Position numbers and translations under genes: made by a program
Shown here: piece after piece, positions 3,001 to 63,105 of the stretch
How positions within the stretch are numbered: the first letter of the stretch is position 1
Layout: each line of letters starts with the position of its first letter
The notes under the pieces: model-generated
Database searches by the model: none
Seen by the model: only the letters and a program-made list of their open reading frames with translations
Told to the model about the DNA's origin: nothing
NCBI GenBank assembly: GCA_041661765.1
Contig: JBAZTV010000001.1
Coordinates: forward strand, 7,755 to 71,754
Reading direction: 5' to 3'
DNA length: 64,000 bases
Source of the DNA: Candidatus Shapirobacteria bacterium
GTDB lineage: Bacteria; Patescibacteriota; Microgenomatia; UBA12405

Positions 3001-5345
3001 ACAGTGATTCCGCCACTTCCGATTTCACTTTATTAAATGGCGATGGCACTACTAGTCTTGAAATCAGAACTGGTATTGGTGATTCGGCAAATACATTTAT
3101 TGGAATCAATGTTGGTTCTTCTAATACCACCGGATATCGTAATACTGGCCTTGGTTACGGTTCCCTAAGATTAAATACCACCGGATATCGTAACACCGCC
3201 ATTGGTTATGGTTCTCTAAGATCCAATACAGAAGGTTTTGATAACCTTGCTTTTGGTAATAATTCACTTTTTTACAACACCACTGGTAGTTCCAATGCTG
3301 CTTTCGGTGGCGTTTCCCTATTTAATAACACCACCGGTAACTATAATTCTGCTGTTGGTGGTGGTTCACTTTCCTCCAACACCGAAGGTTTTAATAACTC
3401 TGCTTTTGGTTATAATTCACTTTTTTGGAACACCACCGGATACCGTAACTCTACTTTTGGTAGTAATTCACTTTCCTCCAACACAACTGGCAACAATAAT
3501 ACTTCTCTTGGTTATTTTGCCCTCGGTTTCGGTACCACTTTAAATTCCAACATTGCTATTGGCTACGAGGCTGGTATGAACCTTTCTGTTGGTTCCAGTA
3601 ATATCTTCTTAGGCAACAGCAACGGTGCTGGTGGTGCTTACAGTAATCGTCTCTACATTGGTAATGGTCAAAGTCCAATTATTTATGGCGATTTAAGCAC
3701 TGGCTACGTCGGCATCGGCACCACCGCCCCAGGCACTCCATTTGCCGTCGCTGGTCTTACTGGTACTACCAGTGGAAATTATCTTCGCTACTACAATAAT
3801 AATTTTTATTACTATTCCTCCTCTGCTCGTTATAAAGATAATATTGAAGTTTTTGATGATGATTTCTCTAAAATTCTCAATATTGAACCAAAAATATTTA
3901 CCGATAAAACCAGCGGTGAAAGAAATATTGGTTTTATTGCCGAAGAAATGGATGCTGCTGGTCTTAATCATCTAGTCACCTACAAAAATGGATTACCAGA
4001 TACTGTTGAATATCAATTAGTTTCTGCATACCTTCTTCAGCTGGCTAAACAACAAAAAATTAAAATTGACAACATTAATAATGATCTATCCCTCACTCAA
4101 ACTGGTCAAATTTCCGTCAACACCAATGTTTCCGATGAAGTCCTCTCTTCTCTTGGCTACGACGGTGCCAAAAATGAAATTGAAGCTGCCACTTATTCTC
4201 TAACCGACACTCTCGGCAACACCGTCTCTCGTATTTCTCAATTCAGTGAAATCGCTTCCGCCAAAATCAAAACCGGTCTCCTTTCCGCCACCAACATCAT
4301 TACCAAAAATATGGTCGCTGAAAAAATCGTTTCACCTTCGGCCGACATAGGTTCACTGAAGGCGGCCACTGCCACTGTTTCTGGCACTCTTTCCGCTAAT
4401 AAAATCGAAACCAACGATCTAGCCGCTAATACCGCTACAGTCTCCACTCTTTATGCCGACAACATTATTTCCAAAGAAGGTTCAATTGGTGAATTAATGA
4501 CCGCCAAAGTCAGTGCCCTCCGCGATGAACTTAAAAATTTAGTTGCCCTAAATACTCAGTCTTCCGGAGCTTCAGCGGAGGAGACCACCCTCACTGGCAC
4601 TTCCCTTCAATCTCAATCATCCACCTGGTCAATGAATATTGCCAGTGATTCGGCCAAAATAACCGGTGATCTCGAACTCGGCAACAACCTCATTGTTGGT
4701 GCTAAACTTACCGTCAATGGCGACACTCAACTCGGCAATGCCTTCATCACCGGCACTTTCACTGCCGGCGAAATCGCCATTAAAGATAATTTTATCGAAA
4801 CCACCAACACCGCTCTCTATATCCAGCCATCACAAACCGGTTCAGTCCACATCATGGGCGACACTTTAGTCATCGCCGAAAACGGCAATATTCAAATCAA
4901 CGGCAATTTAACTGTTTCCGGTTCCCTCATGGCCAACCTCATCGTCGCCGACGAAATCCAAGCCAATAAATTAACCGCCGCCCAAATAAATTCCAATGAA
5001 ATTAAAATTGCTACCGATTCTGCCCAAACCATCGTTGCCGAATCTGGTTTCGGACAAATCGCCACCTCCTCTGCCAAACTAACCTCCAATGCCACCGCCG
5101 GCACCGCCACCCTCCCATCCGGCAAAACTGAAATTGTTATTACCAACGACAAAATCACCGCCAACTCCATGGTCTACCTCACCCCAGTCGGTTCCACCAA
5201 CAACCAAGTCCCCTACATCAAAACCAAAATGGTTTATTCCGAAGCTGAATTACTCGCCGACCCCACCTTACAAAATTACTTCACCATCTCTCTTGATAAT
5301 TATTTAGATAAAGATATCCAAATCAATTGGTGGATTATTAATTAA
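6..5345 (+). CDS. Giant repeat-rich surface/fibre-like protein (more than 1779 aa; 5' end truncated by the window edge, first codon TTG is not a real start). It has an internal intramolecular-chaperone (peptidase S74-like) domain and a C-terminal WWIIN domain.
   Basis: One uninterrupted 5.3 kb ORF. There are hundreds of short NTxGxxN(T/S)A-type repeats and about 5 super-repeats of roughly 250 aa (LYIGNGQNP.IYG...ISIGTT...ARLT..GDS...DF.LLN.DGT..LEIRTGLTDLNN). The segment SSSARYKDNIEVF...ILNIEPKIFTDK...ERNIGFIAEEMD...LV.Y.NG.PDTVEYQLVSAYLLQLAKQQ matches the autoproteolytic chaperone domain of phage tail spikes/endosialidases. The protein ends in ...DKDIQINWWIIN. Confidence 0.7.
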   Translation: MNTTGNYNTASGYWSLYANRTGSYNTALGYYALGAGTTLNANIAVGYRAGLNLSIGSSNIFLGNDNGATGAYDNRLYIGNGQNPIIYGNLANNNISIGTTATGARLTVLGNSNSVTSDFTLLNGDGTANLEIRTGLTDLNNIFIGTGVGQTNTTGSANTANGSESLRNNTTGSYNTANGYYSLNQNISGSFNTSFGMYSLEDNTTGSYNTALGNQSIYNNKTGNYNTAVGINSLGLGTTLNSNIGLGMMAGYNLSIGSSNIFLGNNNGATGAYDNRLYIGNGQNPVIYGDLALGNIGIGTTNPRFKAEINNALYVSALNVGITVASESFSGTSFAPTNYTTGVGDSAFVRDVANYQDTAGSATNGAVPAWGFAWIETTVNMPSYGYVNYWWKVSSEASYDFLVVCVDRSTCNLTNYDRRISGTVDWTQVNIALAAGSHTIRWGYAKDGYTVGGTDQGWIDNITFGLSSGNIYTDGNISIGTTTANARLTILGDSNPHTSDLTLLNADGTPGIEIRTDLTWNLRNTFIGYNVGASNTSGDNNTALGAYSFINNTSGFANTSVGRFSLYANISGFGNNAFGSAALSNNTTGYDNIAFGNNTLSDNLSGHDNIAIGSVSMWNNITGNKNVALGSESLYYNNSDENVAIGYYSLNENIGGTGNSALGSQSLKNNTSGNYNTASGYKSLYFSNNGSNNTALGSFAGYNIGNGSSNVFLGYEAGYNETGSNKLYIANSQNNTLIYGSFSTGNVSIGTTVNTARLTIKGDSDVNNPDFILLNADNSTNLQIRTGLTDLNNIYIGKGSGWTNTTGSYNTSNGSFALSGNTTGSNNTANGSFALASNTTGYQNTANGSSALVNNISGNINVAMGYQSLYTNTIGGGNVAIGSNSLTQNINGNWNTAVGEAALTSNTSGVYNTAYGQGSLGQNSTGSYNTVIGSLAGYSVGIGSSNVFLGYQAGYNETGSNKLYIANSQNNALVYGDFSSGNISIGTTINTARLTIKGDSDSATSDFTLLNGDGTTSLEIRTGIGDSANTFIGINVGSSNTTGYRNTGLGYGSLRLNTTGYRNTAIGYGSLRSNTEGFDNLAFGNNSLFYNTTGSSNAAFGGVSLFNNTTGNYNSAVGGGSLSSNTEGFNNSAFGYNSLFWNTTGYRNSTFGSNSLSSNTTGNNNTSLGYFALGFGTTLNSNIAIGYEAGMNLSVGSSNIFLGNSNGAGGAYSNRLYIGNGQSPIIYGDLSTGYVGIGTTAPGTPFAVAGLTGTTSGNYLRYYNNNFYYYSSSARYKDNIEVFDDDFSKILNIEPKIFTDKTSGERNIGFIAEEMDAAGLNHLVTYKNGLPDTVEYQLVSAYLLQLAKQQKIKIDNINNDLSLTQTGQISVNTNVSDEVLSSLGYDGAKNEIEAATYSLTDTLGNTVSRISQFSEIASAKIKTGLLSATNIITKNMVAEKIVSPSADIGSLKAATATVSGTLSANKIETNDLAANTATVSTLYADNIISKEGSIGELMTAKVSALRDELKNLVALNTQSSGASAEETTLTGTSLQSQSSTWSMNIASDSAKITGDLELGNNLIVGAKLTVNGDTQLGNAFITGTFTAGEIAIKDNFIETTNTALYIQPSQTGSVHIMGDTLVIAENGNIQINGNLTVSGSLMANLIVADEIQANKLTAAQINSNEIKIATDSAQTIVAESGFGQIATSSAKLTSNATAGTATLPSGKTEIVITNDKITANSMVYLTPVGSTNNQVPYIKTKMVYSEAELLADPTLQNYFTISLDNYLDKDIQINWWIIN

Positions 5346-14545: not shown

Positions 14546-15928
14546 TCAAGTTTTTAACTCCTTCACATTCTTTATCTCCACCAATTTCCTCCCCAAACTT
14601 TTCGCTTCCTTCTTTCTTTTCTCCAAATTCCTCACCTTTCTCACTTCTCCCAACAAACTCACCTCACCCACATAAACAGGAAGATTTCTCTCCTTGTTAA
14701 GGAGAGATTTAGAGGGGTTTGAACCAAGGGGCAGATTTCGATACGAACTCCACATTGCCGCCAACACCGCCAAGTCCGCCGCCGTCTCATCAATTTTCAC
14801 TCCACCCGTCACCGACAAAAACACATCATATTTATACAAAGGTATCCCTAAACTTTTTTGAGCAATCGCCACCATTAATTGTCCCCGATTATAATCAATC
14901 CCCGAAAAAATTCTTTTCGGCATCGGCGCAAAACTTTCCACTACCAAAGCTTGAATTTCCAACATCATCGGTCTAGTTCCCTCCATCACAACAGTAACAG
15001 CACTCCCAATTTTACTTTCCTTACTCTCGATTAAATTAATTTCTTCCGATTTAATTTCTCGAAGTCCTTTTTCCTCCATTTTAAAAACCCCCACCTCATC
15101 CGTCGGACCAAACCGATTTTTACTAGTTCGAAGAATTCTTAAGTCCCCATTTTTTTCTCCCTCAAAATACAAAACCGTATCTACCATGTGTTCCAACAGT
15201 TTTGGTCCAGCAATATCCCCATCCTTCGTCACATGTCCCACAATAAAAATTGCCATCCCTTTTTTCTTTGCCATTTGTATTAATCTAAAAGTTGATTCCT
15301 TAATCTGACTTACAGATCCGGCTCCCCCAGATATCAGCGATCCGGAGCCATTGGCGTAGGACGCCATCACCTGAATCGAGTCTACCACCGCTATTTTGTA
15401 CAACTTTTGTGTTCGATCCAAAAACTCCTCCAATTCATCAATCGAATTTGTGCCTAAAACATCGAAGTTATTCGCATTTAAACCTAACCTTTTTACCCTC
15501 AACCCAATTTGCTCCGCCGATTCCTCCCCAGCCACATATAATCCACCTATCTTTCCAATTAATTGAGTCAATAAAGTACTCTTACCAATCCCTGGTTCTC
15601 CAGAAAAAAGTACCGCCGACCCTTGAACAATTCCTTTACCCAAAACTCTATCAAATTCGGAAATACCCGTAGAAAACACACATGAATTTGTAGGAACAGA
15701 CCCTCGTGTCTGTTCCTTGTTTTTATCAAAATCCCCTAAATTAACAATTTCTAATTTCTCTCCTCCAATTTTTATTTTATTTTTTATTTTTCCATTTCCT
15801 AAAAATTTATTTGAAACTTCTTTCAATGAATTCCACTCCCCACAACCACCACACTGCCCCGCCCATTTTCCAAATTCATTTCCACAATTACTACATACAA
15901 AAACCGTCTCTTTATTTTTCATTACCAA
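14546..15928 (-). CDS. radA: DNA repair protein RadA/Sms carrying two in-frame palindromic-repeat inserts
   Basis: N-terminal C4 zinc ribbon (CSNCGNEFGKWAGQCGGCGEW); RecA-like ATPase (GEPGIGKSTLLTQL) with KNRFGPT; C-terminal Lon-like domain. The insert NKEQTRGSVPTNSCV is encoded by the GTAGGAACAGACCCTCGTGTCTGTTC hairpin at 15688..15714, and NPSKSLLNKERNLP by the repeat at about 14685..14720. Confidence 0.85.
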   Translation of the reverse strand: MVMKNKETVFVCSNCGNEFGKWAGQCGGCGEWNSLKEVSNKFLGNGKIKNKIKIGGEKLEIVNLGDFDKNKEQTRGSVPTNSCVFSTGISEFDRVLGKGIVQGSAVLFSGEPGIGKSTLLTQLIGKIGGLYVAGEESAEQIGLRVKRLGLNANNFDVLGTNSIDELEEFLDRTQKLYKIAVVDSIQVMASYANGSGSLISGGAGSVSQIKESTFRLIQMAKKKGMAIFIVGHVTKDGDIAGPKLLEHMVDTVLYFEGEKNGDLRILRTSKNRFGPTDEVGVFKMEEKGLREIKSEEINLIESKESKIGSAVTVVMEGTRPMMLEIQALVVESFAPMPKRIFSGIDYNRGQLMVAIAQKSLGIPLYKYDVFLSVTGGVKIDETAADLAVLAAMWSSYRNLPLGSNPSKSLLNKERNLPVYVGEVSLLGEVRKVRNLEKRKKEAKSLGRKLVEIKNVKELKT

Positions 15929-16240: not shown

Positions 16241-17416
16241 TTACTTATAAATCACATTCTTCTTACTAGTCTCCACAATTCCCAAAGAGATTTTTCTCTT
16301 TTGGACATCAATACTTTCAATATAAACTTGAACTGTCTCACCTTCTTTTACTGTCACCCCACCAGTCAATTTAGAAATATGGATTAACCCTTCAACTCCA
16401 GTTTCCAATTTCACCAAAGCTCCAAAATTAGCAATTCGAACCACTTCACCTTCAACTTCTTTATCTTTTGGATATTTTTCTTCAATTATTGACCATGGAT
16501 CATCAGACAATCTCTTAATTGAAAATTGTAATCTACTATCATCCTTATTAATCAATTTAATTTTAACTTTATCTTTAGCTCTATACATTTGAGAAAGGTC
16601 ACTCACCTTTTCCCAAGAAATTTCCGAAATATGAACCAATCCTTCCAAATTTAAAGGTGCACCCTTATTATCAGTATTAACTCGAACAAAAATACCAAAT
16701 GGCTCAACTCTAACAATATCAGCATCAAAAACATCACCAACTGCTAAATTCTCAATTGCCCCAACCTCTTCACCCACTTTTTCCGGTTCAGACACTAATC
16801 TCTCCGAAAAAACCAATCTGTTTTTAGCTTGATCAACTTCCAAAACTTTAGTTTTGATTTTCTTACCCATCATTTTATCTGGATCACCATCATATTTACT
16901 TCCAATTTGAGAACCAGGAATAAATCCAAAAAAACCAAATGGTGCAACCACAACCGTTCCACCTCTATTTAATTCCTTAGCAAAGACAGTCACCTCACCA
17001 CCACTCTTTTCCTTTTCTTTAAAGTAGTTCCAACCATAGCCACTAGCTGCTCCACGAATTGAAGCCAAAATTTGGCCCTTATCATTTTCTGGTGATTTAA
17101 TTTGAACTTCAATTTCATCATTTACCTTCAAATCAGCCACATAATCTTTTACAAATTCAAACTCCTTTCCAGCTACCATTGCGTCGGTTTTACCACCAAC
17201 ATCAATATAAATTGCTTTATTCTTAATTGCTGTAATTCTCCCTTTAACTTCCTGTCCTTTTTTAAGTCCAACTAATTGAACTCCTTCCATCTTTAAAAGA
17301 TCCGCCATTGTTAAAGCAGCATCACTTTTTTTTACTTTTTTGTCCTTATTTTTCATATTTTTATCTTTTTTTTGTTTAGTCGACCGTAGCCTTGGCGAAG
17401 GTGACCCATAAAACAA
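16241..17416 (-). CDS. rpsA: Ribosomal protein S1-like protein with four S1 domains; the real start is probably internal (about 17356, MKNKDKK), since the first 20 codons are read from a repeat
   Basis: Four OB/S1-type repeats (GQEVKGRITAIKNKAIYIDVGG, GEVTVFAKELNRGGTVV, GDVFDADIVRVEPFGIFVRV, GEVVRIANFGALVKLETGVEGLIHIS). The N-terminal GSPSPRLRSTKQ is encoded by the GTCGACCGTAGCCTTGGCGAAGGTGACC hairpin. Confidence 0.7.
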   Translation of the reverse strand: MFYGSPSPRLRSTKQKKDKNMKNKDKKVKKSDAALTMADLLKMEGVQLVGLKKGQEVKGRITAIKNKAIYIDVGGKTDAMVAGKEFEFVKDYVADLKVNDEIEVQIKSPENDKGQILASIRGAASGYGWNYFKEKEKSGGEVTVFAKELNRGGTVVVAPFGFFGFIPGSQIGSKYDGDPDKMMGKKIKTKVLEVDQAKNRLVFSERLVSEPEKVGEEVGAIENLAVGDVFDADIVRVEPFGIFVRVNTDNKGAPLNLEGLVHISEISWEKVSDLSQMYRAKDKVKIKLINKDDSRLQFSIKRLSDDPWSIIEEKYPKDKEVEGEVVRIANFGALVKLETGVEGLIHISKLTGGVTVKEGETVQVYIESIDVQKRKISLGIVETSKKNVIYK

Positions 17417-21903: not shown

Positions 21904-21906
21904 GTC

Positions 21907-23040
21907 CTAATTATACATTACCAACTCCCAAATACCCTTATCTTCTCCCTCATATCCCAACGCCCAAAATCCTACTCCTCCCAACTGATTTTGTTTCACC
22001 AAGTCAAGCTTTGCTTTCAAACTTCTCTCATTTTCAAAATATATCTGATGTATTTCCCCATCTTCTTCAAATACCACCCACGGCGTCATCGATAGTTCAT
22101 CAAAATTTGATGTAAGGGCAGACCCTTGTGTCTGCCCATCAAAAAACTCTTTCATCCGTTTCCAACTAGCCATTTGATACCAACCTCTAATCACTGGTGC
22201 TTCAAAATCTTTTGTATAAGTTTTCCATTCATATCCATAAAGCGGATAAGCCATCACTATTTTTTCTTTATTTATATTCAAAGCTAAAATTTTTTCCACC
22301 ACTTCCATAATATTTCTATCTCCTGGTTTCGATTCAATTGGTGCCACCGCTCCAGCATAATTCACCCCTGGTCGATGAAAATCATAAGCCATAATAATTA
22401 AATTATCGACTGAATTAATCAGACCATTAATTTGTTCCGCTGATCCCTTATTAATAGTGTTCACAAAAATATCTAAACTAATTTCTCCCAAATCACTTTC
22501 TTTTAACTTAGCCATAAAACCGACCATTTCTTCCGATAAAACTGCTGTCGGATTTCCTTGATATTCAAAATCCACATTAATCCCATCAAACTTTTCTGTT
22601 TGCCGAAGAGTTTTTAATTGATTAATCAAATTATTTTGGGCTTCAGTCGAAGCCATTAATCTATCAATTTTCTCATCAATAAACAGTTTAATCCCCAAAA
22701 TATTTTTGCCACCATTTTCCCAAATCAAGTCTTTTTGTTTTAAATAATTTTCATTATTTATTTTTTTCGATTGACCATCCCAAATCAAATTCCCTTTTTC
22801 ATCAACTTCTATTCCCAAAAAAATCAAATAATCAATTTCATCCGTATATTCAATTGTTTTTCCAACCATCCAAGTCGGCAAAAAACCAAATACTTTAATA
22901 GAAGCTCCCTTGTTAAGGGGAGATTTAGAGGGGTTTTGATTCTCAGACAACGGATTTAATATCTCCATTTTTCCATTCCAATAAAAATATCCAGCTAGTA
23001 TTACCAAAAATAATCCCAAACCTAAAAAAACCTTTTTCAT
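21907..23040 (-). CDS. Secreted glycoside-hydrolase family 18-like protein with an in-frame repeat insert
   Basis: N-terminal signal/TM. FDGINVDFEY matches the GH18 DxxDxDxE catalytic motif, and a TIM-barrel-like hydrophobic pattern is present. NPSKSPLNKGAS (repeat at about 22900..22940) and GQTQGSALTSNFD (hairpin at 22110..22136) are repeat-encoded inserts. Confidence 0.55.
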   Translation of the reverse strand: MKKVFLGLGLFLVILAGYFYWNGKMEILNPLSENQNPSKSPLNKGASIKVFGFLPTWMVGKTIEYTDEIDYLIFLGIEVDEKGNLIWDGQSKKINNENYLKQKDLIWENGGKNILGIKLFIDEKIDRLMASTEAQNNLINQLKTLRQTEKFDGINVDFEYQGNPTAVLSEEMVGFMAKLKESDLGEISLDIFVNTINKGSAEQINGLINSVDNLIIMAYDFHRPGVNYAGAVAPIESKPGDRNIMEVVEKILALNINKEKIVMAYPLYGYEWKTYTKDFEAPVIRGWYQMASWKRMKEFFDGQTQGSALTSNFDELSMTPWVVFEEDGEIHQIYFENERSLKAKLDLVKQNQLGGVGFWALGYEGEDKGIWELVMYN

Positions 23041-40437: not shown

Positions 40438-40489
40438 TAACTTCTCCCTTTTTCAAGGGGAGATGTCGAGCAAAGCGAGACAGAGGGGT

Positions 40490-45959: not shown

Positions 45960-46024
45960 AGTTTATTTTAACTTAAATATTATTTACCGATCTATCTTAT
46001 TCCCCTCCTTTTTTAAGGAAGTTT

Positions 46025-46051
46025 TGTAGGGGCAGACCATTGTGTCTGCCC
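46025..46051. repeat. Family-3 hairpin: TGTAGGGGCAGACC-ATTGT-GTCTGCCC (second copy at 46209..46235 with CGTTGT)
   Basis: 8-bp perfect stem. Further copies lie inside CDSs at 22110..22136, 26392..26418 and 50706..50733. The sub-variant GTAGGAACAGACCCTCGTGTCTGTTC occurs at 12449..12475 and 15688..15714. Confidence 0.75.
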
Positions 46052-46208
46052 AACCATTAATCCCTTGCGGTTATATTTCGGCAATTATGCGGTTATTACC
46101 TTCAAAATATGTTCTAACTTTTATTATCCATACCTCCGAAACGTGAAAAAACGTCATAACCCAATTCCATAGTTTTGTCATAATTTTTAAATTTAAAAGG
46201 GAAATTTT

Positions 46209-46235
46209 ATGTAGGGGCAGACCGTTGTGTCTGCC
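46209..46235. repeat. Family-3 hairpin copy (TGTAGGGGCAGACCGTTGTGTCTGCCC)
   Basis: Direct reading. Confidence 0.75.
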
Positions 46236-46340
46236 CAAAATAAAAGGAAAAATAGTCCCAACCAATTTCAAATGGCCAAAATTAAAATCCAAAATCTGTA
46301 CTAATTTCAAGCAGGGGAATATATCAAAAATAAAAATAAA

Positions 46341-46395
46341 ACCTCCCTGTCAAGGGAGGTGGCGATCCCGCAACTGCGGGAGAGACGGAGGGTTT
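46341..46395. repeat. Family-1 repeat: near-identical copy of 25687..25742 (the hairpin B loop is CAACTG instead of CAGCAG)
   Basis: Direct reading. Confidence 0.8.
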
Positions 46396-46507
46396 GTTCC
46401 TGAAACGCTCCGCATTTCACCAGACATAAAAAATTCGTAGCAAAAAATATATAACGAGAAAAATAAAAAAACAAAGACTTCTCCTTTTGTTAAGGGGAGA
46501 TACCGGT

Positions 46508-47737: not shown

Positions 47738-47745
47738 TATCTATT

Positions 47746-49023: not shown

Positions 49024-49050
49024 AACCCAATCTTAACATATTAAATACTT

Positions 49051-49127
49051 CTCCCTTGCTTGTCCGTCCGCAGCTTTAGCAAAGGAGGATCAAGGGAGGT
49101 GGTCCGAAATTTCGGACCGGAGGGTTT
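49051..49127. repeat. Composite or nested repeat: a family-1 hairpin A split by an inserted CTTGTCCGTCCGCAGCTTTAGCAAAGGAGGAT unit (family 2), followed by hairpin B (TGGTCCGAAATTTCGGACC) and GGAGGGTTT
   Basis: CTCCCTTG[CTTGTCCGTCCGCAGCTTTAGCAAAGGAGGAT]CAAGGGAGG... Equivalent composites occur at 13240..13300, 12225..12330 (inside rho) and 49638..49717. Confidence 0.7.
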
Positions 49128-49133
49128 AATCCC

Positions 49134-49601
49134 TTAGGATTTCTTTATCACAATATGTCTCTCTTCACCTTCACCCTCTGATTCGCTCTCTATTCCTTCA
49201 ATTTCAGCTAATGTCATATGACAAATTCTTCTTTCATAAGAACTCATACTCGCCATCGGAACCGGATTACCAGTCTCCAACACTTTTTCAGCCAAAGACT
49301 TAACCATGTTTTCCAATCTTATTTTTTGTTCTCCTCGATAATTATTTACATCCAAAAGAACTCTAATTCCCTCACTAATTTGAGATCTGATAATTAAAGA
49401 TAAAACAAATTGGATTGAAGCTAAATTTCGACCTCTAAAACCAATTAATCCAGCTGGATTTTTAACTGTTATTCCAACTAAAACCTGATTTTCTTCACCA
49501 TCCACATCTTCCACAAAAGCTTTTTCCACTTCAAAATTCATTTTTTCCAAAAGTTCACAAGTGAATTTTAATATTTCTTCGTTTCTTTTTTTATTATCCA
49601 T
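49134..49601 (-). CDS. jag: Jag/KhpB-like RNA-binding protein (KH + R3H)
   Basis: 155 aa. The position directly downstream of yidC is canonical, and the GFRGRNLASIQFVL segment is R3H-like. Confidence 0.65.
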   Translation of the reverse strand: MDNKKRNEEILKFTCELLEKMNFEVEKAFVEDVDGEENQVLVGITVKNPAGLIGFRGRNLASIQFVLSLIIRSQISEGIRVLLDVNNYRGEQKIRLENMVKSLAEKVLETGNPVPMASMSSYERRICHMTLAEIEGIESESEGEGEERHIVIKKS

Positions 49602-49637
49602 AGTCGCTATTTTAACACGAAAATTTTAAAAAAATTG

Positions 49638-49717
49638 CTCTCTTGCTTGTCCGTTCGCAGCTTTAGCGTAGGAGGATCAAGGGAAGCTGTTCCGATTTAT
49701 CGGGACTGAGGGGTTTT
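49638..49717. repeat. Composite family-1/family-2 repeat (CTCTTGCTTGTCCGTTCGCAGCTTTAGCGTAGGAGGATCAAGGGAAG + CTGTTCCGATTTATCGGGAC + TGAGGGGTTTT)
   Basis: Direct reading; same nested organisation as 49051..49127. Confidence 0.7.
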
Positions 49718-50494
49718 ATTCATTTTATCAACTACTATTTGTTGAACCACCATAAAACCAGACGTTATAAACCAATATAAAAGCAACCCCAATGAAAAAC
49801 TCCAACCAATAAAAATTGTCATCAACGGCATCATATAAGTCGATTGAGTTCTCATCATCGCCATCATATCATCCTCTTTATCTTTAGTAGTATTAGCAAT
49901 TGATTCACTTACTTTTGGAGCAGGCATCATCAATTTAGCACTTAAATATTGTAAAAAACCCGAACCAAGTAAAAGTATCAATGGCAATATCAAACCTGAG
50001 TCCATTCCTTGAGAAAATATTTTTGCTGGAGTCTGTATTAAATCAGAACCAAAAAAACTCATATCAAATTTAAAATTTTGATCAATTCTAAAAGATTGAA
50101 TTAAATTATTATTAATCTTTTCCAAGGGAACTTTTCCTTCAGAAAAAAGACTCACCATATTAAAAGCATAAAAAAACAAAAGCAATACCGCTATTTGAAT
50201 AATCTGAGGTAAACAACCAGACAATGGATTAACTCCTTCTTGTTTATAAAGATCCATTTGAGCTTTAGCCAAAGCTTGTTTATCCTTTCCAAATTTCTCT
50301 TTTAATTTATTTAGTTTTGGTTGTAATTCTCTTATTCTTTTAGCCGATTTTAAACTTGGCATCACCAATGGTAATAAAACTAATCTAATCACCAATGTCA
50401 CTATAATAATGGCCAATCCAAAATTGCCTACCATATAATAAACAGCAAACAAAGCATTTACAAACGGAGCAAGAAATAAATTCATATCGTTCAT
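49697..50494 (-). CDS. yidC: Membrane protein insertase YidC (short form)
   Basis: 265 aa with 5 TM helices; ...QPKLNKLKEKFGKDKQALAKAQMDLYKQEGVNPLSGCLPQIIQ... is the conserved YidC/Oxa1 core. Confidence 0.85.
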   Translation of the reverse strand: MNDMNLFLAPFVNALFAVYYMVGNFGLAIIIVTLVIRLVLLPLVMPSLKSAKRIRELQPKLNKLKEKFGKDKQALAKAQMDLYKQEGVNPLSGCLPQIIQIAVLLLFFYAFNMVSLFSEGKVPLEKINNNLIQSFRIDQNFKFDMSFFGSDLIQTPAKIFSQGMDSGLILPLILLLGSGFLQYLSAKLMMPAPKVSESIANTTKDKEDDMMAMMRTQSTYMMPLMTIFIGWSFSLGLLLYWFITSGFMVVQQIVVDKMNKTPQSR

Positions 50495-50703
50495 TCTACC
50501 AAATCAATTCCACCTTTTGATAGGGGGTTGCATCTTAAAATTCTTTTTATTCCCAAAAACAAGCCCTTAATCACCCCATATTTTTTCACGGCTACATAAG
50601 TATATTCGGAACAAGTTGGTGTAAACCGACAATGATTTCCAATTCCAGTCCCAGAAATATATTTCTTATAAAAAACCAACATCTTCAATACTATTTTTTT
50701 CAT
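50491..50703 (-). CDS. yidD: Membrane protein insertion efficiency factor YidD
   Basis: CRFTPTCSEYTYVAVKKYGVIKG...RILRCNP is the YidD (DUF37) signature. Confidence 0.8.
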   Translation of the reverse strand: MKKIVLKMLVFYKKYISGTGIGNHCRFTPTCSEYTYVAVKKYGVIKGLFLGIKRILRCNPLSKGGIDLVE

Positions 50704-51069
50704 TTATGTACGGGCAGACCATTGTGTCTGCCCCTCAATAATTCTATTTATTTCTTTTTCAACTTCATCATATTTTTTACCTAAAATTTCTTTTTTCGTC
50801 AAAAAAATCACTCTTGTCCCATTTTCAAATTTTTCTAATTTTTTTCTGACTACTTCTGATAAGACTCTTCTAATTCTATTCCGATCCACCGCTTTTTTAG
50901 AAATCTTTTTCGACACTATAAACCCAAATTTTTTCTGATCATCATTTTCTTTACACGTCAAAAAACCAAAAAGAGGAGAGTATAAAATTCTCCCTTTATT
51001 TTTAATTTCAGCAAATTCCTTCTTCAACCTAATTCTATTTTCTCTTTTTAACACAACCAATTTTATCAT
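50704..51069 (-). CDS. rnpA: Ribonuclease P protein component; the last 10 codons are read from a GTACGGGCAGACCATTGTGTCTGCCC hairpin
   Basis: 121 aa, basic. The position between rpmH and yidD is canonical; KKISKKAVDRNRIRR is the RnpA RNR-like motif. Confidence 0.7.
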   Translation of the reverse strand: MIKLVVLKRENRIRLKKEFAEIKNKGRILYSPLFGFLTCKENDDQKKFGFIVSKKISKKAVDRNRIRRVLSEVVRKKLEKFENGTRVIFLTKKEILGKKYDEVEKEINRIIEGQTQWSART

Positions 51070-51080
51070 TTAATATAGAC

Positions 51081-51218
51081 TTAGCCAGTTATTTTCTTTC
51101 TACCCTTAGTTCTTCTTCTTTTAAGCACGTTTCTACCATCATGATCCATCATTCTTTTCAAAAATCCATGAACACGGGCATGTTTTTTTGCTTTTCGCTG
51201 TAAAGTCATTTTTGTCAT
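51081..51218 (-). CDS. rpmH: 50S ribosomal protein L34 (not in the supplied ORF track; found by translating the minus strand)
   Basis: Minus-strand translation MTKMTLQRKAKKHARVHGFLKRMMDHDGRNVLKRRRTKGRKKITG (45 aa) aligns with L34 (MKRTFQPS..K..R.HGFR.RM.T..GR.VL.RRR.KGRK.L). Confidence 0.8.
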   Translation of the reverse strand: MTKMTLQRKAKKHARVHGFLKRMMDHDGRNVLKRRRTKGRKKITG

Positions 51219-51488
51219 AGCTGCTATTTTATCATAAAAACTAACAATCTAATATTATTTAAACCCTCCTTGTCAAGGGAGGGTCTCCGATTTATCGGAG
51301 GGGTGGGTTTTGTTTAATTTGATATCTTTTCTTTTGTGGAAAACTCATCTAATATAAACATTACCCCAATCGATTTTTCCACAATTTCGATTTTAAACTC
51401 CTGCCTATTTAACCGTTATTTTTTATGATTTTAATCTCCCTTTAATCAAAGGGAGAAACTCCGCGACAGCGGAGAGAGGAATTTAAAA

Positions 51489-52832
51489 ATGGATATTGAA
51501 AGAATTTGGAAAAACACTCAAGAAGAGTTAAAAATAACTCTTGCCCCAGCTATCTTTCAAACTTTTGTTTTAAAAACCCAACTCATTAACCTTGAGAATA
51601 ATCTTGCCATTATTGGTTGTCCCAATACTTACTCTGTTGATTTCAACAAAAAACGCCACTATGACGTCATCAAAAACGCCCTAGACAATCAAACCAAAAA
51701 CAACAACACCCTTAATTTTATTGTCCAAGAAAATTTAAAAACCGATTTTGATACCACCAACAATACTCCACTTTTTTCCTATTCTCCCAACAGGGTTACT
51801 AATTCTTCTCTTCACCCAAAATACACTTTTGAAAACTTAGTTGTTGGTAATAGTAATAATTTTGCCTTTGCTGCCGCTCAAAGTATTGTTAAAAATCCCG
51901 GTCTTTCTTATAATCCTTTCTTTATTTGGGGTGGGGTAGGAGTTGGAAAAACTCATCTTATGCAGGCTATCGGACATGAACTTCTCAAAAAGAATCCTGA
52001 TTTAAAAATAAAATATTTTTCCGCTGAATCATTCGGCAACGAATTAATTGGTGCCCTTAAAACCAAAAACATGAATCATTTTAAAGAAAAATATCGTAAT
52101 TTAGACTGCATTCTCGTTGACGATATTCAATTTATCGCTGGTAAAGAATATACCCAACAGGAATTTTTTCACACTTTCAATGCCCTCCATATGAACGGTA
52201 AACAGGTTATTTTAACTTCCGATCGTAAACCTAGTGAAATTGACCATCTTGAAGATCGTCTTGTCTCTCGGTTTATGGGTGGCTTAACCGTCGATATTCA
52301 ACTTCCCGACTACGAAATGCGCATCGCTATTATCAGCCAAAAAATTGAAGAAAAGGGGATTCAAATTACTCCCGAGGCTGTTGAATTTTTAGCCAATAAT
52401 ATTGAATCAAATATTCGCGAAATTGAAGGTAAGCTTCAACAAATTTCCGTTCAATCTCTATCTCAACAAACAGGGGAGATAGATATTCTTTTTGTCCAAA
52501 AATTTTTCAATCCTTCCTCAACTTCTACTAATTTTAGTTTACCCACCACCAAATTAAATCCTCGTCATATTATTTCTGTCTGTGCTAAACATTTTAATAT
52601 TAAAACCAGTGACCTTTGTGGAAAAAGTCGCAAGAAAGAATTGGTCACCGCTCGTCACATTACTGCTTATTTACTCTTAACCCAAATAAACCTACCTTTA
52701 GAAGAAGTTGGACATCTTCTTGGTGGTCGTGATCATACCAGTATTATGCATGCTCGAGATAAAATAACCAACGACTTTTCCACTAATCCACAAACTCGTC
52801 AACTTATCAACCAAATCAAAAACACTTTTTAA
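51489..52832 (+). CDS. dnaA: Chromosomal replication initiator DnaA
   Basis: AAA+ Walker A GGVGVGKTHLMQAIG, Walker B LDCILVDDIQFIAGK, sensor motifs, and a C-terminal DNA-binding helix-turn-helix (TARHITAYLLL...GGRDHTSIMHA). Confidence 0.9.
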   Translation: MDIERIWKNTQEELKITLAPAIFQTFVLKTQLINLENNLAIIGCPNTYSVDFNKKRHYDVIKNALDNQTKNNNTLNFIVQENLKTDFDTTNNTPLFSYSPNRVTNSSLHPKYTFENLVVGNSNNFAFAAAQSIVKNPGLSYNPFFIWGGVGVGKTHLMQAIGHELLKKNPDLKIKYFSAESFGNELIGALKTKNMNHFKEKYRNLDCILVDDIQFIAGKEYTQQEFFHTFNALHMNGKQVILTSDRKPSEIDHLEDRLVSRFMGGLTVDIQLPDYEMRIAIISQKIEEKGIQITPEAVEFLANNIESNIREIEGKLQQISVQSLSQQTGEIDILFVQKFFNPSSTSTNFSLPTTKLNPRHIISVCAKHFNIKTSDLCGKSRKKELVTARHITAYLLLTQINLPLEEVGHLLGGRDHTSIMHARDKITNDFSTNPQTRQLINQIKNTF

Positions 52833-56635: not shown

Positions 56636-59221
56636 TTAAACTATCCCGTCTCCAAACAATTTATCATAATCCATCTTATTGTCTTCTTTTTTAAATTCTC
56701 CCTTGTCAAGGGGAGATGTCGATTTATCGACAGAGGGGTTTGAATCAAATATTGGTTGTGGTTTTCTTGCCAATTGTGGTGGTTGAGGTATTCTTTGTTC
56801 TTCAGTTTTAACAAAAATCGGTTTTTTATTTTCCGAGACCACTACAACTTCTGGCCTTTTAAATAACACCGACTCAGTTTTTAACTCCGGTTTTATTTCA
56901 GTCATCGCTACTGTGGGATTAAAGGAGGTGTTCCGCAGTGGCGGAACGGAGGGTTTTACTTCAATTTCCACTGGTTTTATTTCGGGAACACTAACTTTAG
57001 GAGTAAAATTAATGGTTCTTATTTCATCAGTTTTATTAGCAGTCAATGCTGACTCAACTGGTTTTACCTCCATCGGTTTTATTTCTAAAACATTAAAATT
57101 AGTTGTCGTTTCAGGCATTTTAATCTCCATTGATTTTATTTGCCCTGCCCTGTCAAGGGAAGGGTTAGTGAAGGGTTTAGGTACTTCTGGTGGGACTGAG
57201 GGGTTTTGAACCGGAATTTTATTTTCAATCTCTACAGTTTTTATTTCTGGAATATTAAATTTTGGCGCCACTGGAGTCGTTTTTACCTCGACTGGTTTTA
57301 AGTCTCCCTTGTCAAAGGGAGATTTAGAGGGATTGAAAACAGCTGATGGGTTTTGAAACGGTTTCGTTTCTATCGGTTTAATTAGTGGTTTCATTCCATT
57401 ATTTGGCTTTTGATCACTCAATAAACTTTGCTTTTTTAAAATATCTTCTGGATTAGAAGTAATTAAATTATGTTCATCAGCCGAAGCAATTATTTGAATT
57501 GCCACATGGTTTTGCCCAGCAAAGAAAATTCCTTCACCTTTACTTGCCGATAATAATAATTGTTTTTCTCCCTGACTCAAATAAAATACTTCTCCAATTT
57601 GGTCAATAGCCGCACTATGTTGTTTTAATAAAATTTGAATTGAACTATTAGTAACTATTTCTTTACCATAAGCAGTTTTCAAAAAATCATCAACATCTTG
57701 GGTAATTGTTGTCACTCCCAAATAGTATTTTCTGCCTCTTTTAACAATTCCTCTTAAAAATTCAGCTGAATCATCATGTTGCATCAAATACCAGGCTTCA
57801 TCCACCACCAATATTCTTTTTTTCAATGTCTTTTTAACAACCGTCCAAATATAATCCAAAATAATTTGCATTGCCACAGGTCTCAAAGCATCTTCCAAAT
57901 TTCTAATTCCAAAAACTACAAATTTATTAGTTAAATTAACCGTTGTCTTTTGGTTAAAAATTCCCGAAAAGGATCCTTTAATATATTTTTCCAATCTGGC
58001 TGCCAAACCTTTAGCTTTTTCATCTTCCATTCCAATCAAAGATTTATACAAATCCTCAATTAATGGTGGTTCTTTGTCTTGAGTTACTGGATCAGGAGTA
58101 ATCCCTTTCATCTTATAAGCATCCATCATTGCTCTATCCATAATTGATTCCTCAATCGGATCCATTTCACCCAACATCACTTTTAATAGTTTATGTAAAG
58201 ATAAGATCTTAGTATTTAAACCATTTTCACCCTGTTCTTCGGCTAAAGTTAAATCAAACGGATTAATTTTTGAACCTTCACCATAACCAAATGCAATATA
58301 TTGGCCGCCAGAATTATCACACAATTCTTTGTATTCATTTTCCGGGTCAATCACAATAACATCCGTTCCCATCATTAATGATCTAAGAACCTCCAATTTA
58401 ATTAAATAAGATTTACCAGCTCCAGCCATAGCAAAAACAACTGAATTATAATTTGGCATTGAAAATCTATCAAAAATTACCAAAGACCCATTATGCATAT
58501 TAATCCCATACATAATTCCCTGATCATCTGATAAATCTGACGACACAAAAGGGAAAGTAGTTGCCAAAGAGGTAGTATCCATATTTCGACTAACTGCCAA
58601 TCTATCTTGGCAAATAGGTAAAGTCGATACAAATCCATCTTCCATTTGTAACGTCGCTTTTTTACTTATAATCAACAACGATCCCAAGGCTGCCTCTAAA
58701 TTTTTATTTACTCTATCCAGTTCAACTATAGAATCAGCCGTTATCGTTACATAAAGTCCAAATTGAAAAAATCTTTCTTCGCCTTTAACCAAATTAGCCT
58801 GCAAATTCAAAGCATCCTCCAATTTCGCTTGTGTTGCTGGATTAATCAATCTACCCCTTTGAATATCAGTACTTAACTCGGCCTCCATTTCTGTGATTTT
58901 TCGGCGAAGATCATCTAAAACTTCTTTTCCATCGGTCGGATAAATAAACATTGAAATATTTAAAGAAGAATCAAAGTTAATCAATGACGACAACCAATTA
59001 ATTCCCACAAATCTCGGATATGCCGCAACAAATAAAGTTCGATAATATTTATTATCAATTCTAATATGGTTAAAATCCACTTCCAAAGCTGATGGAGCAA
59101 TTATATCTTTAGTTGTCACCAACCCTTGAGTGAAATCTCTTTTATTTGGATCAACTACCTCTGTTGGTGTTGCTGGATTATTTACTACTGTTGTTTTTTT
59201 ATTAATATTAAAAAGTTTCAT
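56636..59221 (-). CDS. virB4: VirB4/TrbE/CagE-family T4SS ATPase with a C-terminal extension of about 270 aa that reads through four palindromic repeats
   Basis: Walker A VFAMAGAGKSYLIKLEVL; Walker B ILVVDEAWYLM; conserved RKYYLGVTTITQDVDDF. The tail contains SKSPFDKGDLKP, NPSLDRAGQIK and TSPLDKGEFKK, encoded by repeats at 56697..57331. Confidence 0.8.
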   Translation of the reverse strand: MKLFNINKKTTVVNNPATPTEVVDPNKRDFTQGLVTTKDIIAPSALEVDFNHIRIDNKYYRTLFVAAYPRFVGINWLSSLINFDSSLNISMFIYPTDGKEVLDDLRRKITEMEAELSTDIQRGRLINPATQAKLEDALNLQANLVKGEERFFQFGLYVTITADSIVELDRVNKNLEAALGSLLIISKKATLQMEDGFVSTLPICQDRLAVSRNMDTTSLATTFPFVSSDLSDDQGIMYGINMHNGSLVIFDRFSMPNYNSVVFAMAGAGKSYLIKLEVLRSLMMGTDVIVIDPENEYKELCDNSGGQYIAFGYGEGSKINPFDLTLAEEQGENGLNTKILSLHKLLKVMLGEMDPIEESIMDRAMMDAYKMKGITPDPVTQDKEPPLIEDLYKSLIGMEDEKAKGLAARLEKYIKGSFSGIFNQKTTVNLTNKFVVFGIRNLEDALRPVAMQIILDYIWTVVKKTLKKRILVVDEAWYLMQHDDSAEFLRGIVKRGRKYYLGVTTITQDVDDFLKTAYGKEIVTNSSIQILLKQHSAAIDQIGEVFYLSQGEKQLLLSASKGEGIFFAGQNHVAIQIIASADEHNLITSNPEDILKKQSLLSDQKPNNGMKPLIKPIETKPFQNPSAVFNPSKSPFDKGDLKPVEVKTTPVAPKFNIPEIKTVEIENKIPVQNPSVPPEVPKPFTNPSLDRAGQIKSMEIKMPETTTNFNVLEIKPMEVKPVESALTANKTDEIRTINFTPKVSVPEIKPVEIEVKPSVPPLRNTSFNPTVAMTEIKPELKTESVLFKRPEVVVVSENKKPIFVKTEEQRIPQPPQLARKPQPIFDSNPSVDKSTSPLDKGEFKKEDNKMDYDKLFGDGIV

Positions 59222-61886: not shown

Positions 61887-63105
61887 AGAAAAGTCGCCCC
61901 TGTCAAAGGGAGATGCCCGCAGGGCAGAGGGGTTTGTTCCAAAAATAGTTTTAGTCCAAGACTACATCAAAGAATTCGGAGGTGCTGAGTCCGTTCTCGA
62001 AACATTATCTGAAATTTTCCCTAAAGCTCCTATTTACACCACTCTCTATAAACCAGAATTTCTTGGTCCTCATCAATCTCGTCTCCAAAAAAAATGGGAG
62101 AGCCGGGTCCATCAAAGCTTTTTTCAATATATTCCTTTTGTCCACAAAATCATCAGCCCTCTTCGTCTTTTATCTCCCTTAGCCTTTAAATCTTTTGATT
62201 TTTCTAAGTTCGACATCATTATTACTTCAGCCACTGGTGCCTATTTCCCTAATTTAATTAACAAAAAAAGTGCCAAATTAGTTTGTTATTGCCACACTCC
62301 ACCTCGTTATCTTTATGGTCTTCCTACTGCTCGTAACTTCACTAAAAATAAATTCATTTATGCCTTAATTCAGGTTTTAAATCACCTTTTGAGAATTATC
62401 GATTTCAAATCTTCCCAAAATGTTGACCAATTTATCGCCAATTCTCAAACCACCGCCGACCGCATCAAAAAATTCTACCGCCGCGATTCCATCATTATTA
62501 ATCCGCCTATTGAAACAATAAAAGAAAAGGCGAGCGATGGTGATGTTTCCGCGCGCAATATCCGAGGTGCACTACCGAAGGGCGTGAGCACGGAAAAATT
62601 ATCATCCGAGCCATATTTCTTAACCGGTGGCCGATTAGCTCGTGCCAAACGTTACGACATCGCCATTCAAGCCTGCAATCAATTAAATTTAAAATTAAAA
62701 ATTTTCGGCCGTGATTTTGCCAATTTTTCCGATGAATTAAAAGCCATGGCTGGCCCTACTATTGAATTTTTAGGTGAAGTTACTCAAGACCAAAAAGACC
62801 TACTTTATTCCCAAGCCCAAGCTTTTATTTTTTGTTCCGACAACGAAGATTTTGGCATGGTTCCAGTCGAATCTATGGCCCATGGCTGTCCAGTCATTGC
62901 CTATAAAAGTGGGGGAACCACTGAGACTGTTATCGACAGTAAAACTGGTGTTTTTTTTGATGAATTAACCCCTAAATCATGTGCCACCGCCATTCAAAAA
63001 TTTCAAAAATTAAAAATCAATTCCAAAGACTGCATTTCCCGCGCTGCCGATTTCTCCACCGAAAAATTTGTTTCCAAAATTAAAAAACTAGTTTTTAGCC
63101 TTTAA
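61816..63105 (+). CDS. GT4-family (GT-B) glycosyltransferase. The start is uncertain: the track ORF overlaps the exonuclease by 70 nt, and the N-terminus and one internal loop are repeat-encoded.
   Basis: C-terminal EX7E-type motif ...FCSDNEDFGMVPVESMAHGCPVIAYKSGGTTETV. KSPLSKGDARRAEGFVP (61895..61940) and SARNIRGALPKGVST (62551..62593) are repeat translations. Confidence 0.65.
   Translation: MKNKIQLKLIIKMKSKHTKPHYSKEKSPLSKGDARRAEGFVPKIVLVQDYIKEFGGAESVLETLSEIFPKAPIYTTLYKPEFLGPHQSRLQKKWESRVHQSFFQYIPFVHKIISPLRLLSPLAFKSFDFSKFDIIITSATGAYFPNLINKKSAKLVCYCHTPPRYLYGLPTARNFTKNKFIYALIQVLNHLLRIIDFKSSQNVDQFIANSQTTADRIKKFYRRDSIIINPPIETIKEKASDGDVSARNIRGALPKGVSTEKLSSEPYFLTGGRLARAKRYDIAIQACNQLNLKLKIFGRDFANFSDELKAMAGPTIEFLGEVTQDQKDLLYSQAQAFIFCSDNEDFGMVPVESMAHGCPVIAYKSGGTTETVIDSKTGVFFDELTPKSCATAIQKFQKLKINSKDCISRAADFSTEKFVSKIKKLVFSL

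Follow-up and report, generated by a model that had tools for sequence, protein, structure and literature searches.

Triplex-layout repeats related to the BoxC/PIT motifs lie in-frame in a VirB4-like ATPase gene and other genes of Candidatus Shapirobacteria

Intrastrand triplex motifs of the BoxC/PIT type were reportedly described by Hoyne et al. in 2000 from Escherichia coli and other bacteria, while Ogata et al., also in 2000, are said to have found Rickettsia palindromic elements (RPE) lying in-frame in protein genes. RPE are palindromes of approximately 100–150 bp without a triplex-type third arm, and REP/BIME sequences are mobilised by RAYT transposases of the Y1, IS200/IS605-like type. 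The BoxC elements of E. coli, which are the same as the PIT elements and TMECO, constitute a class II intrastrand triplex motif and form a triplex in vitro; the TMECO consensus is CCCTCNCCC N3-6 GGGNGAGGG N3 GGGNGAGGG, its type A has TTA as the second loop, and E. coli K-12 holds 23 copies that are always intergenic, show no strand bias and have no associated transposase (Holder et al. 2015; PMC4666352). Here, a 64-kb stretch of DNA from Candidatus Shapirobacteria (Microgenomates group, Patescibacteria; 35% GC), referred to as the window and meaning the whole stretch analysed, was found to carry dispersed repeats of related design, a number of which lie in the gene for a VirB4/TraC-like ATPase and in other genes without disturbing the reading frame.

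The Pfam domains of the VirB4-like protein (TraG P-loop, AAA_10) stop near residue 562, beyond which the open reading frame (ORF) continues through a C-terminal tail holding three complete repeat copies (56697-56741, 57143-57174, 57303-57334) and two partial ones (56916-56956, ~57185-57212). The features of this gene are as follows, Y1 being the pyrimidine arm of a repeat, R2 its purine arm and R3 its third arm:

56636..59221, minus strand: VirB4/TraC-like ATPase ORF, 861 aa, stop-free, 100% identical to public protein P0121
56636..57433, minus strand: C-terminal tail of ~265 aa, rich in P, K, E and V, with no Pfam domain
56639..56677, minus strand: conserved C-terminal motif KMDYDKLFGDGIV, essentially kept in 22/22 aligned homologues
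56697..56741, plus strand: triplex-type copy, long form, with Y1 TCTCCCTT, loop GTCA, R2 AGGGGAGA, extra hairpin TGTCGATTTATCGACA, R3 GAGGGG and TTT
56916..56956, plus strand: partial copy with an R2-like arm, hairpin GTTCCGCAGTGGCGGAAC, R3 GGAGGG and TTTT, Y1 missing or decayed; peptide KPSVPPLRNTSFNP
57143..57179, plus strand: triplex-type copy, short form with TTA second loop, CCCTGCCCT GTCA AGGGAAGGG TTA GTGAAGGG TTT; peptide PFTNPSLDRAG
57185..57212 (about), plus strand: 3' remnant of a further copy, ..GGGACTGAGGGGTTTTG, coding for part of VQNPSVPPEV
57303..57334, plus strand: triplex-type copy, short form, TCTCCCTT GTCA AAGGGAGA TTT AGAGGGA TT; peptide NPSKSPFDKGD

The initial annotation of this DNA had attributed the tail to read-through of repeats giving SKSPFDKGDLKP, NPSLDRAGQIK and TSPLDKGEFKK. 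All three peptides are encoded by the ORF, a tail of some 265 aa does exist and the repeats do behave as indels, but the tail itself was not made by them. An alignment of 22 homologues (61–100% identical) revealed the conserved tail blocks ESVLFKRPEVVV and KKPIFVKTEEQRIPQPPQLARKPQPIFDS (the second also given as KKPIFIKTEEQRIPQPPQLARKPQPVFDS), together with the terminal motif KMDYDKLFGDGIV, which is altered at two or three residues in the most divergent of these proteins. The earlier stop that had been envisaged for related strains was found neither in the 22 aligned sequences nor in the lengths of all 120 VirB4-like homologues among the matches listed (717–960 aa). Since every one of the 22 shares the tail blocks and the ending, the tail is ancestral and the frame through the repeats real; it is a C-terminal linker, probably disordered, in whose variable parts the repeats sit as indels.

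The individual copies of the tail differ from homologue to homologue. The copy at 56697-56741, which is the last in the protein (NPSVDKSTSPLDKGEFKK) and translates on the minus strand to SNPSVDKSTSPLDKGE, corresponds to a clean 42-nt gap in the related locus L118 and is missing from proteins P0138, P0141, P0156 and P0235, while the NPSLDRAG copy (57143) is confined to the window sequence, the other aligned homologues lacking it at this site. At the 57303 site, the first in the protein, homologues carry other variants or nothing; the arms of the window copy there give a 7/7 mirror match. The GACTGAGGGGTTTT tail of the 57185-57212 remnant recurs in the copies at 42916 and 48813.

Read along one strand, the main element consists of Y1 (for example CCTCCCT), a GTCA loop, R2 (here AGGGAGG), a second loop, R3 (here GGAGGG) and TTT; it measures approximately 32–55 nt, with GC-rich arms of 7–10 nt that vary in sequence from copy to copy, and its second loop is either a trinucleotide (TTA or TTT) or a complete additional hairpin whose sequence varies. 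This is not the plain palindrome that had initially been supposed, as the main family has a three-arm layout in which R3 is the mirror of R2 and neither its complement nor its direct repeat. For the window copies, the best 7-mer match of R3 was 6.07/7 as a mirror, 5.12 as a direct repeat and 5.09 in permutations, with ten perfect mirrors and no perfect direct match; the possibility that R3 is a direct repeat, serving an alternative hairpin or attenuator, was ruled out as the mirror score was the higher in 30 copies and the lower in 3. Across 104 distinct copies the mirror score was 6.87 within a copy against 6.11±0.06 when third arms were swapped among copies, G-run length and the outer base being the features that covary; as the regular expressions used for collecting fix part of arms 2 and 3, this cross-copy shuffle comparison is the meaningful figure. 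In 166 copies from several phyla, a G of R2 lies opposite a G of R3 in 831 of 852 cases and an A of R2 opposite A or T in 305 of 316, in agreement with an antiparallel purine motif, whose triplets are G·G-C, A·A-T and T·A-T (PMC4666352). At the rare duplex inversion sites of the same copies the third arm covaries as well: C in the purine arm faces T in 9 of 11 cases and T faces C in 6 of 6.

Watson-Crick folding of the single DNA strand forms the two hairpins H1 and H2 and leaves R3 unpaired. The class II arm order (Y, complementary R and third arm on a single strand) was observed in 48 window copies and in more than 100 copies from other genomes. Short forms, such as those at 57143, 57303 and 7150, lie within the limits of the ITxF search (6–15 nt stem with no more than one mismatch, 1–6 nt loop), whereas long forms fall outside its loop limits, since loop 2 accommodates a hairpin of 12–30 nt or a hairpin is nested within loop 1 (56697, 45145, 12241). 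Nested hairpins within loop 1, often of the TCCGTAGCTTTAGCGAAGGAG family, were seen at 13229-13310, 49042-49128, 49629-49715, 12241-12307 and 42484-42550, which suggests that the loops of the repeats are themselves insertion sites. A G-quadruplex was discarded as the general structure, four G runs being present only in the GGGAGGGG-TTA-GGGGTGGG subfamily and most copies having two.

The element shares with BoxC/PIT/TMECO the same one-strand arm order with a reverse-Hoogsteen purine third arm (class II), GC-rich arms of 7–10 nt, a dispersed and multicopy occurrence without a transposase, and a copy number that varies among close relatives; the subfamily CCCCTCCTT GTCA AGGGAGGGG TTA GGGGTGGG, with its TTA second loop, is very close in design to TMECO type A. 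It differs in its arms (CCCCTCCTT/AAGGGAGGGG/GGGGTGGG, TCTCCCTT/AAGGGAGA/AGAGGGA and CCTCCCT/AGGGAGG/GGAGGG), which depart from the TMECO consensus, in its conserved GTCA first loop, in the whole hairpin of 12–30 nt that often occupies loop 2 and sometimes loop 1, and in its abundance, with approximately 48 copies in 64 kb where the whole genome of E. coli K-12 has 23. Here many are genic and the orientation to one strand is strong, whereas those of E. coli are intergenic and unoriented. The parallel with RPE that had been drawn initially extends to non-autonomous repeats tolerated in-frame within essential genes, the genome in both cases being small and AT-rich, to polymorphism among relatives and to the addition of short hydrophilic segments at permissive sites. 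The present inserts are nevertheless shorter (9–26 aa), belong to several families and include a three-arm layout, which sets them apart from the description of RPE, and BoxC/PIT is the closer known relative of the main family. As in H-DNA, arms R2 and R3 form a purine mirror repeat; here, however, the complementary pyrimidine arm belongs to the same strand, so that an intrastrand triplex is possible with no duplex partner having to be unwound, and the tracts are only 7–10 nt. As judged from its sequence, the element is a variant of the BoxC/PIT/TMECO triplex motifs that behaves in genes like RPE.

The claim that repeats lie in-frame in many essential and accessory genes was substantiated by comparison with syntenic loci from two to three related genomes (L001, L003 and L117-L120). 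Repeat-sized presence/absence indels relative to close relatives (proteins 68–93% identical) were found at repeat positions, and frame-preserving ones were identified in eleven genes, namely VirB4, rho, radA, the two RimK-type ATP-grasp genes (RimK1 and RimK2), GH18 (first site), Wzy, GT4, DUF4012, TPR437 and the large first ORF (1779 aa). The inserts measure 9–26 aa (27–78 nt). The sites outside VirB4 are:

4559..4590, plus strand: family C repeat in the 1779-aa ORF (SSGASAEETT); 6-aa indel relative to L003
5671..5713, plus strand: triplex-type copy in TPR437 (a plus-strand gene), sense reading FSPSSRGDAANAERG; absent in L003, more copies in L001
12241..12307, plus strand: composite triplex-type copy in the N-terminal region of rho, hairpins nested in both loops; peptide PSLSDEIGNTSLDPASGRASR
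14687..14720, plus strand: triplex-type copy in a radA loop of the C-terminal Lon-like domain; peptide SNPSKSLLNKER
15305..15371, plus strand: GC-rich hairpin at the third radA indel site, in the loop after the Walker B strand; ASYANGSGSLISGGAGS versus NCENATGVIGS
15690..15715, plus strand: REP-like hairpin GTAGGAACAGACCCTCGTGTCTGTTC in the radA segment joining the zinc ribbon to the ATPase domain; peptide EQTRGSVPT
22905..22937, plus strand: triplex-type copy in the N-terminal region of GH18, peptide QNPSKSPLNKGA; variant in L001, absent in L003
26393..26418, plus strand: REP-like hairpin in RimK-type ATP-grasp gene 1, 10-aa insert GQTQGSALTEKS; clean indel relative to L001 and L003
27269..27313, plus strand: family D repeat (..ATCCGAGGTGCAATGCCGAAGGGCGTGAGCAC..) in RimK2; insertion of ~26 aa
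27493..27531, plus strand: triplex-type copy in RimK-type ATP-grasp gene 2, peptide IKNPSKSPFDLKGD; a different hairpin repeat there in L001 and L003
32642..32673, plus strand: triplex-type copy in the SpoIID-like gene, within its predicted signal-peptide region; peptide FPSLSREGSGVG, unchanged in L119
44828-44866, 45030-45061 and 45145-45194, plus strand: three triplex-type copies in the DUF4012 linker before the membrane helix; all differ in L119 and L120
48370-48401 and 48813-48864, plus strand: two triplex-type copies in Wzy, polymorphic relative to L117 and L118; first site empty in L118
61895..61931, plus strand: triplex-type copy in GT4, 12 codons in, peptide SPLSKGDARRAEG; 45-nt (15-aa) indel relative to L117
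62529..62595, plus strand: second family D copy, in GT4 (..RNIRGALPKGVS..); insert of ~18 aa

In rho the insert is a clean 63-nt (21-aa) indel relative to both L001 and L003, and in the minus-strand gene RimK2 inserts of 9 aa and approximately 26 aa are seen relative to relatives. An alignment of 30 RadA sequences revealed three hot spots that match the repeat sites, including the one between the zinc ribbon and the ATPase domain, which bears out the insertion proposed there initially; the site at 15305-15371 had been missed at that stage. At each of them the relatives carry several different variants derived from repeats, or no insert at all. The 14687 copy is absent in 11 of the 30 sequences, and the remainder have other variants. 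Relative to the Streptococcus pneumoniae RadA structure (PDB 5LKM), the three insert sites correspond to gaps of 8+2, 6 and 10 residues, of which 8+2 belongs to the 15690 site and 10 to the site in the C-terminal domain (14687). An AlphaFold model of RadA, built with 30 close homologues, was too poor to be used (mean pLDDT 43), and the gaps in 5LKM were taken instead.

Orthologue comparison thus upheld most of the sites first listed as indels, the second GH18 site and the family C site of TPR437 (6429-6460) showing no clean indel relative to relatives. The SpoIID-like segment is the same in L119, the one relative compared, and no empty allele was found there. The N-terminal insertion in rpsA has to be withdrawn, as its repeat is located ahead of the gene:

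17379..17410, plus strand: family C repeat near rpsA, upstream of the real start, an ATG at 17356

RpsA has 371 aa both in orthologues and in the gene call on the same sequence, which places the repeat outside the coding region; the same holds for the copies in front of DUF6909 and o130, which precede the true start codons and are non-coding. At the other end of genes, repeats touch or overlap the 3' ends of RimK2 (26715-26747), FtsH (40443-40491), DUF4012 (42916-42964), Wzx (46480-46526), YidC (49638-49715) and RnpA (50708-50733), and the final residues and stop codon are supplied by the repeat in Wzx, YidC (..KTPQSR, then stop) and RnpA:

50708..50733, plus strand: REP-like hairpin in the gene of the RNase P protein (RnpA), supplanting its C-terminus and stop codon (..EGQTQWSART, then stop)

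Different repeats may also occupy the same position in different relatives. The GT4 N-terminus exists as the long form in the window, as a TTA short form, of a different subfamily, in L118 (site 61895), and with nothing in L117; at both RimK2 sites the hairpin families differ between the window and L001/L003; and radA site 1 has at least five states among the 30 relatives. Given that the flanks of such hot spots are 85–90% identical and that the elements show differences along their whole length, divergence in place is a less likely origin than repeated insertion or replacement.

The density of the repeats far exceeds expectation. With no more than 2 mismatches allowed, a degenerate core 15-mer, YCCCTTGTCAAGGGR, matched the window 35 times as against 0.27 expected from shuffles, and approximately 50 pyrimidine/purine hairpins were counted as against some 7 distinct sites (6–26 two-strand detections) in Markov controls. 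The 48 triplex-type copies amount to approximately one per 1.3 kb; 28 are intergenic, 15 are wholly within coding sequence and 5 overlap gene 3' ends, which corresponds to ~3.5 copies per kb of intergenic DNA (8.1 kb) and 0.28 per kb of coding DNA (52.7 kb), the former being approximately 12 times denser. No target-site duplication was detected, the longest string shared by the two flanks averaging 3.12 as against 3.09±0.09 in controls, and Pfam searches revealed no transposase in the 64-kb window.

Within the window 43 copies are canonical on the plus strand and 5 on the minus strand. The plus strand has a GC skew of -0.13 to -0.43 throughout, and the dnaA origin was rejected as an orientation switch point, since neither the skew nor the orientation of the repeats switches at dnaA/dnaN; in related Microgenomates, a chromosome-wide G/C strand disparity without a switch at the origin has been reported (PMC7143001). 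Among independent low-GC loci the canonical strand coincides with the locally C-rich strand in 71 cases and with the G-rich strand in 13, whereas relative to the nearest or containing ORF it is the same strand in 45 and the opposite in 39, and orientation therefore follows strand composition and not transcription.

A scan for the motif CCCTGTCAAGGGRRR-N(0-30)-GAGGGKTT, with one genome taken per species, returned at least 113 loci, all with the same three-arm layout. The taxa among the matches listed comprise Shapirobacteria and further Patescibacteria (Collierbacteria, Peribacteria); Geobacter and other Desulfuromonadales; Zoogloeaceae, Gallionella, Nitrosomonadales and Burkholderiales; and also Oscillospiraceae, other Clostridiales, Spirochaetes and Cloacimonadota. 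Several metagenome-assembled genomes labelled ‘uncultured Gammaproteobacteria’ (among loci L004-L116) combine 30–42% GC and strong skew with many copies of the type seen in Candidate Phyla Radiation (CPR) bacteria, and these labels are probably wrong. Carriage by phages was rejected, as the motif is near-absent from viral contigs (3 matches in 2.9 million). Literature searches returned no prior description of these repeats in CPR genomes or inside genes, nor the exact motif string.

Although the initial annotation had treated all copies as one and the same repeat, at least four unrelated families are present in the window: the triplex-type, a GTAG-headed REP-like hairpin, the TCCGTAGCTTTAGCGAAGGAG type and a 42-nt ATCCGAGGTGCA...GTGAGCAC type. 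In each of the other families named, the listed copies are without exception direct repeats on the plus strand. The REP-like family (GTAGGGGCAGAC..GTCTGCCC) has seven copies with heads GTAGG, GTAAG or GTACG and a fold z-score of -6.4, and conforms to an imperfect palindrome of 20–40 nt with a conserved 5' GT[AG]G head; four of the seven copies lie in genes (radA, GH18, RimK1, rnpA) and are thus not extragenic. REP/BIME sequences resemble the present repeats in being short GC-rich imperfect palindromes, with which the GTAG/GTAA-headed second family agrees, in the lack of target-site duplication and in the single orientation per family that would be expected of single-strand transposition; they differ in that four of seven copies are genic here, and in lacking the mirror third arm of the main family. 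No RAYT (Y1 transposase) gene was found in the 64-kb window or the fetched loci. The GTAG-headed REP-like and the other hairpin families behave like the triplex-type element. A near-identical 42-nt repeat, GCGCAAYATCCGAGGTGCAMTRCCGAAGGGCGTGAGCAC, stands in-frame in RimK2 (minus-strand gene, 27269-27313) and GT4 (plus-strand gene, 62529-62595), where it encodes the unrelated peptides VGAHALRHCTSDVA and RNIRGALPKGVS, respectively, and it has no strong predicted fold. Further perfect hairpins with GTAG or GTAC heads, TGTAGAGACGCCACGCATGGCGTCTCTACA and TGTAGGGGTCAGGCATGCCTGACCCCTA, are intergenic (10846-10919, 15937-16030) and look like extra REP-type families.

RadA, the VirB4-like protein and FtsH of the window are 100% identical to public Candidatus Shapirobacteria proteins. 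Pfam confirmed rho, radA, rpsA, GH18, the two RimK-type ATP-grasp genes, Wzy, GT4, the DUF4012 protein, the SpoIID-like protein and the VirB4/TraC-like ATPase, whose gene adjoins PrgI, TraC-like and NlpC/P60 genes, and placed dnaA (51489-52832) and dnaN inside the window. The window also contains 23S rRNA, 5S rRNA and two tRNAs in a split arrangement (17579-25619), in which 5S-23S-tRNA-Ala is followed by VTT, GH18, orf568 and DUF5684 genes and then by tRNA-Ile; no 16S gene lies within the 64 kb. The 1779-aa ORF is repeat-rich, with 51-nt periodic NxTGxxNTAxG repeats and a Peptidase_S74 chaperone domain, and both it and the neighbouring TPR protein terminate in ..(I/F)(N/K)WWIIN and a stop (5325-5345, 6787-6807), an ending that is kept in L001 and L003 and may be a common C-terminal sorting or anchoring signal. 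Between radA and rho, L001 has a 416-aa gene without a Pfam match (12726-13976), and the same place in the window (12413-13928) is 1.5 kb of repeat-rich, mostly ORF-free DNA, a difference that may reflect decay or replacement of a gene at a repeat cluster.

Taken as a whole, these data probably describe an ancestral VirB4 linker penetrated by dispersed repeats of BoxC/PIT-like triplex layout, whose genic copies are surviving passengers and which spread via a single-strand template. Copies are rapidly gained, lost and swapped among close relatives, their orientation is tied to the strand, they are depleted in genes and they lack target-site duplications. Spread or upkeep would proceed through a step acting on one template in its single-stranded state, the replication fork being one such place, and by analogy such a step may resemble the hairpin-recognising single-strand transposition of REP/RAYT and IS200/IS605. 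Genic copies would be those that survived selection, being a multiple of three in length, free of stops and placed in a linker, loop, signal peptide or terminus. One and the same DNA yields peptides of the NPSKSPLDKGE type where the gene is on the minus strand and of the SPLSKGD..AEG type where it is on the plus strand; because these are unrelated and depend on gene strand and frame, the recurrent peptides quoted in the initial annotation, which are indeed present, are by-products, and would be tolerated passengers rather than functional modules. Several points weigh against this account. Mobility is deduced from polymorphism only, neither a mobilising enzyme nor a donor/empty-site mechanism having been identified, and the subfamily differences at the same codons of GT4, RimK2 and radA could reflect repeated insertion, gene conversion or fast evolution in place. 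Orientation was scored against GC skew, a proxy for the replication strand, and because this skew undergoes no change at dnaA in the lineage the link to replication is indirect; the collecting patterns fix parts of the arms beforehand, leaving the evidence for covariation with the shuffles among copies; and the loop placement of the inserts comes only from gaps against 5LKM. Triplex formation, furthermore, is deduced from sequence rules and the E. coli relative, for which in vivo footprinting gave no support for a stable triplex (PMC4666352).

The main rival, which appears unlikely, is that the repeats are not selfish passengers; they would be DNA-structure signals maintained by the host, for instance in replication or lagging-strand processing, in recombination or genome plasticity, or in DNA uptake, with selection preserving the three arms locus by locus. 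Covariation of the three arms across many variants and phyla, orientation tied to a single DNA strand, the lack of a transposase both here and for TMECO of E. coli, and the link of triplex motifs to higher local genome variability (PMC4666352) would all suit such a role, whereas copies come and go among close relatives at unconserved positions, their 12-fold depletion in genes resembles a cost rather than placement, and earlier tests of PIT elements, as summarised, revealed no promoter, terminator or in vivo polymerase-blocking activity (PMC4666352). A role in RNA of the kind proposed for REP, whether in termination, in stabilising mRNA or as regulatory hairpins, is very improbable. It is favoured by the stability of hairpins H1 and H2, which have a T run behind them when a copy is read canonically, and by the several copies at gene 3' ends; orientation, however, is independent of gene direction, on which ground an intrinsic terminator role was rejected, and most copies near minus-strand genes are antisense and so have no U-tract after the hairpin. 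Watson-Crick pairing does not account for the covarying mirror arm, RNA reportedly does not form triplexes of the purine motif (PMC4666352), fifteen copies lie in coding sequence, and Rfam gave no family at the repeats, either over the whole window at gathering thresholds or in a permissive scan of 42400-51600. Similarly little credence can be given to the segments being ancestral coding sequence of low complexity, or peptide motifs (NPS..PLDKGE) under selection, rather than insertions: the unchanged length at TPR437 6429-6460 and the second GH18 site and the conservation of the SpoIID-like segment in one relative favour this, but it is largely refuted by repeat-sized indels in more than ten genes, and the same DNA is also intergenic and is read from either strand and in different frames into unrelated peptides. 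The doubt that assembly or sequencing errors make intergenic repeats seem coding draws only on the general difficulty of assembling repeats from metagenomes and has a negligible probability. An independent assembly, L121, matches the window over 4546-18248 (13.7 kb) at 99.97% identity, gap-free and with the repeats included, and the in-frame copies of rho and radA are therefore not assembly errors; moreover, the conserved protein resumes in-frame after every copy, including at the C-terminal motif of VirB4.

Beyond the probable single-strand spread of tolerated repeats, a more far-reaching suggestion is offered tentatively, as we consider it rather doubtful. The GTCA loop, the three-arm covariation and the one-strand orientation are common to Patescibacteria, Desulfuromonadales, Betaproteobacteria, Oscillospiraceae and other groups, and might reflect a triplex that forms in vivo on the template strand and is recognised by a widespread copying or replication-linked machinery. 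If so, the process would be active enough in Microgenomates for essential proteins to be remodelled continually, and would provide a natural system for testing the biology of triplex DNA.

BoxC/PIT motifs have been known for decades and described as strictly intergenic and unoriented, and their function, spreading mechanism and in vivo structure are not established. The related variant described here is approximately a hundredfold denser, is strand-oriented and lies in-frame in genes such as rho, radA and that of the VirB4-like ATPase. It thereby offers many natural ‘filled versus empty’ sites from which the manner in which such repeats move may be worked out, while the covariation argues for constraint on the triplex layout as such. 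For CPR proteins the repeats are a hazard to annotation and alignment, inflating ORFs upstream of true starts, and they point to a source of rapid variation in protein length among CPR bacteria.

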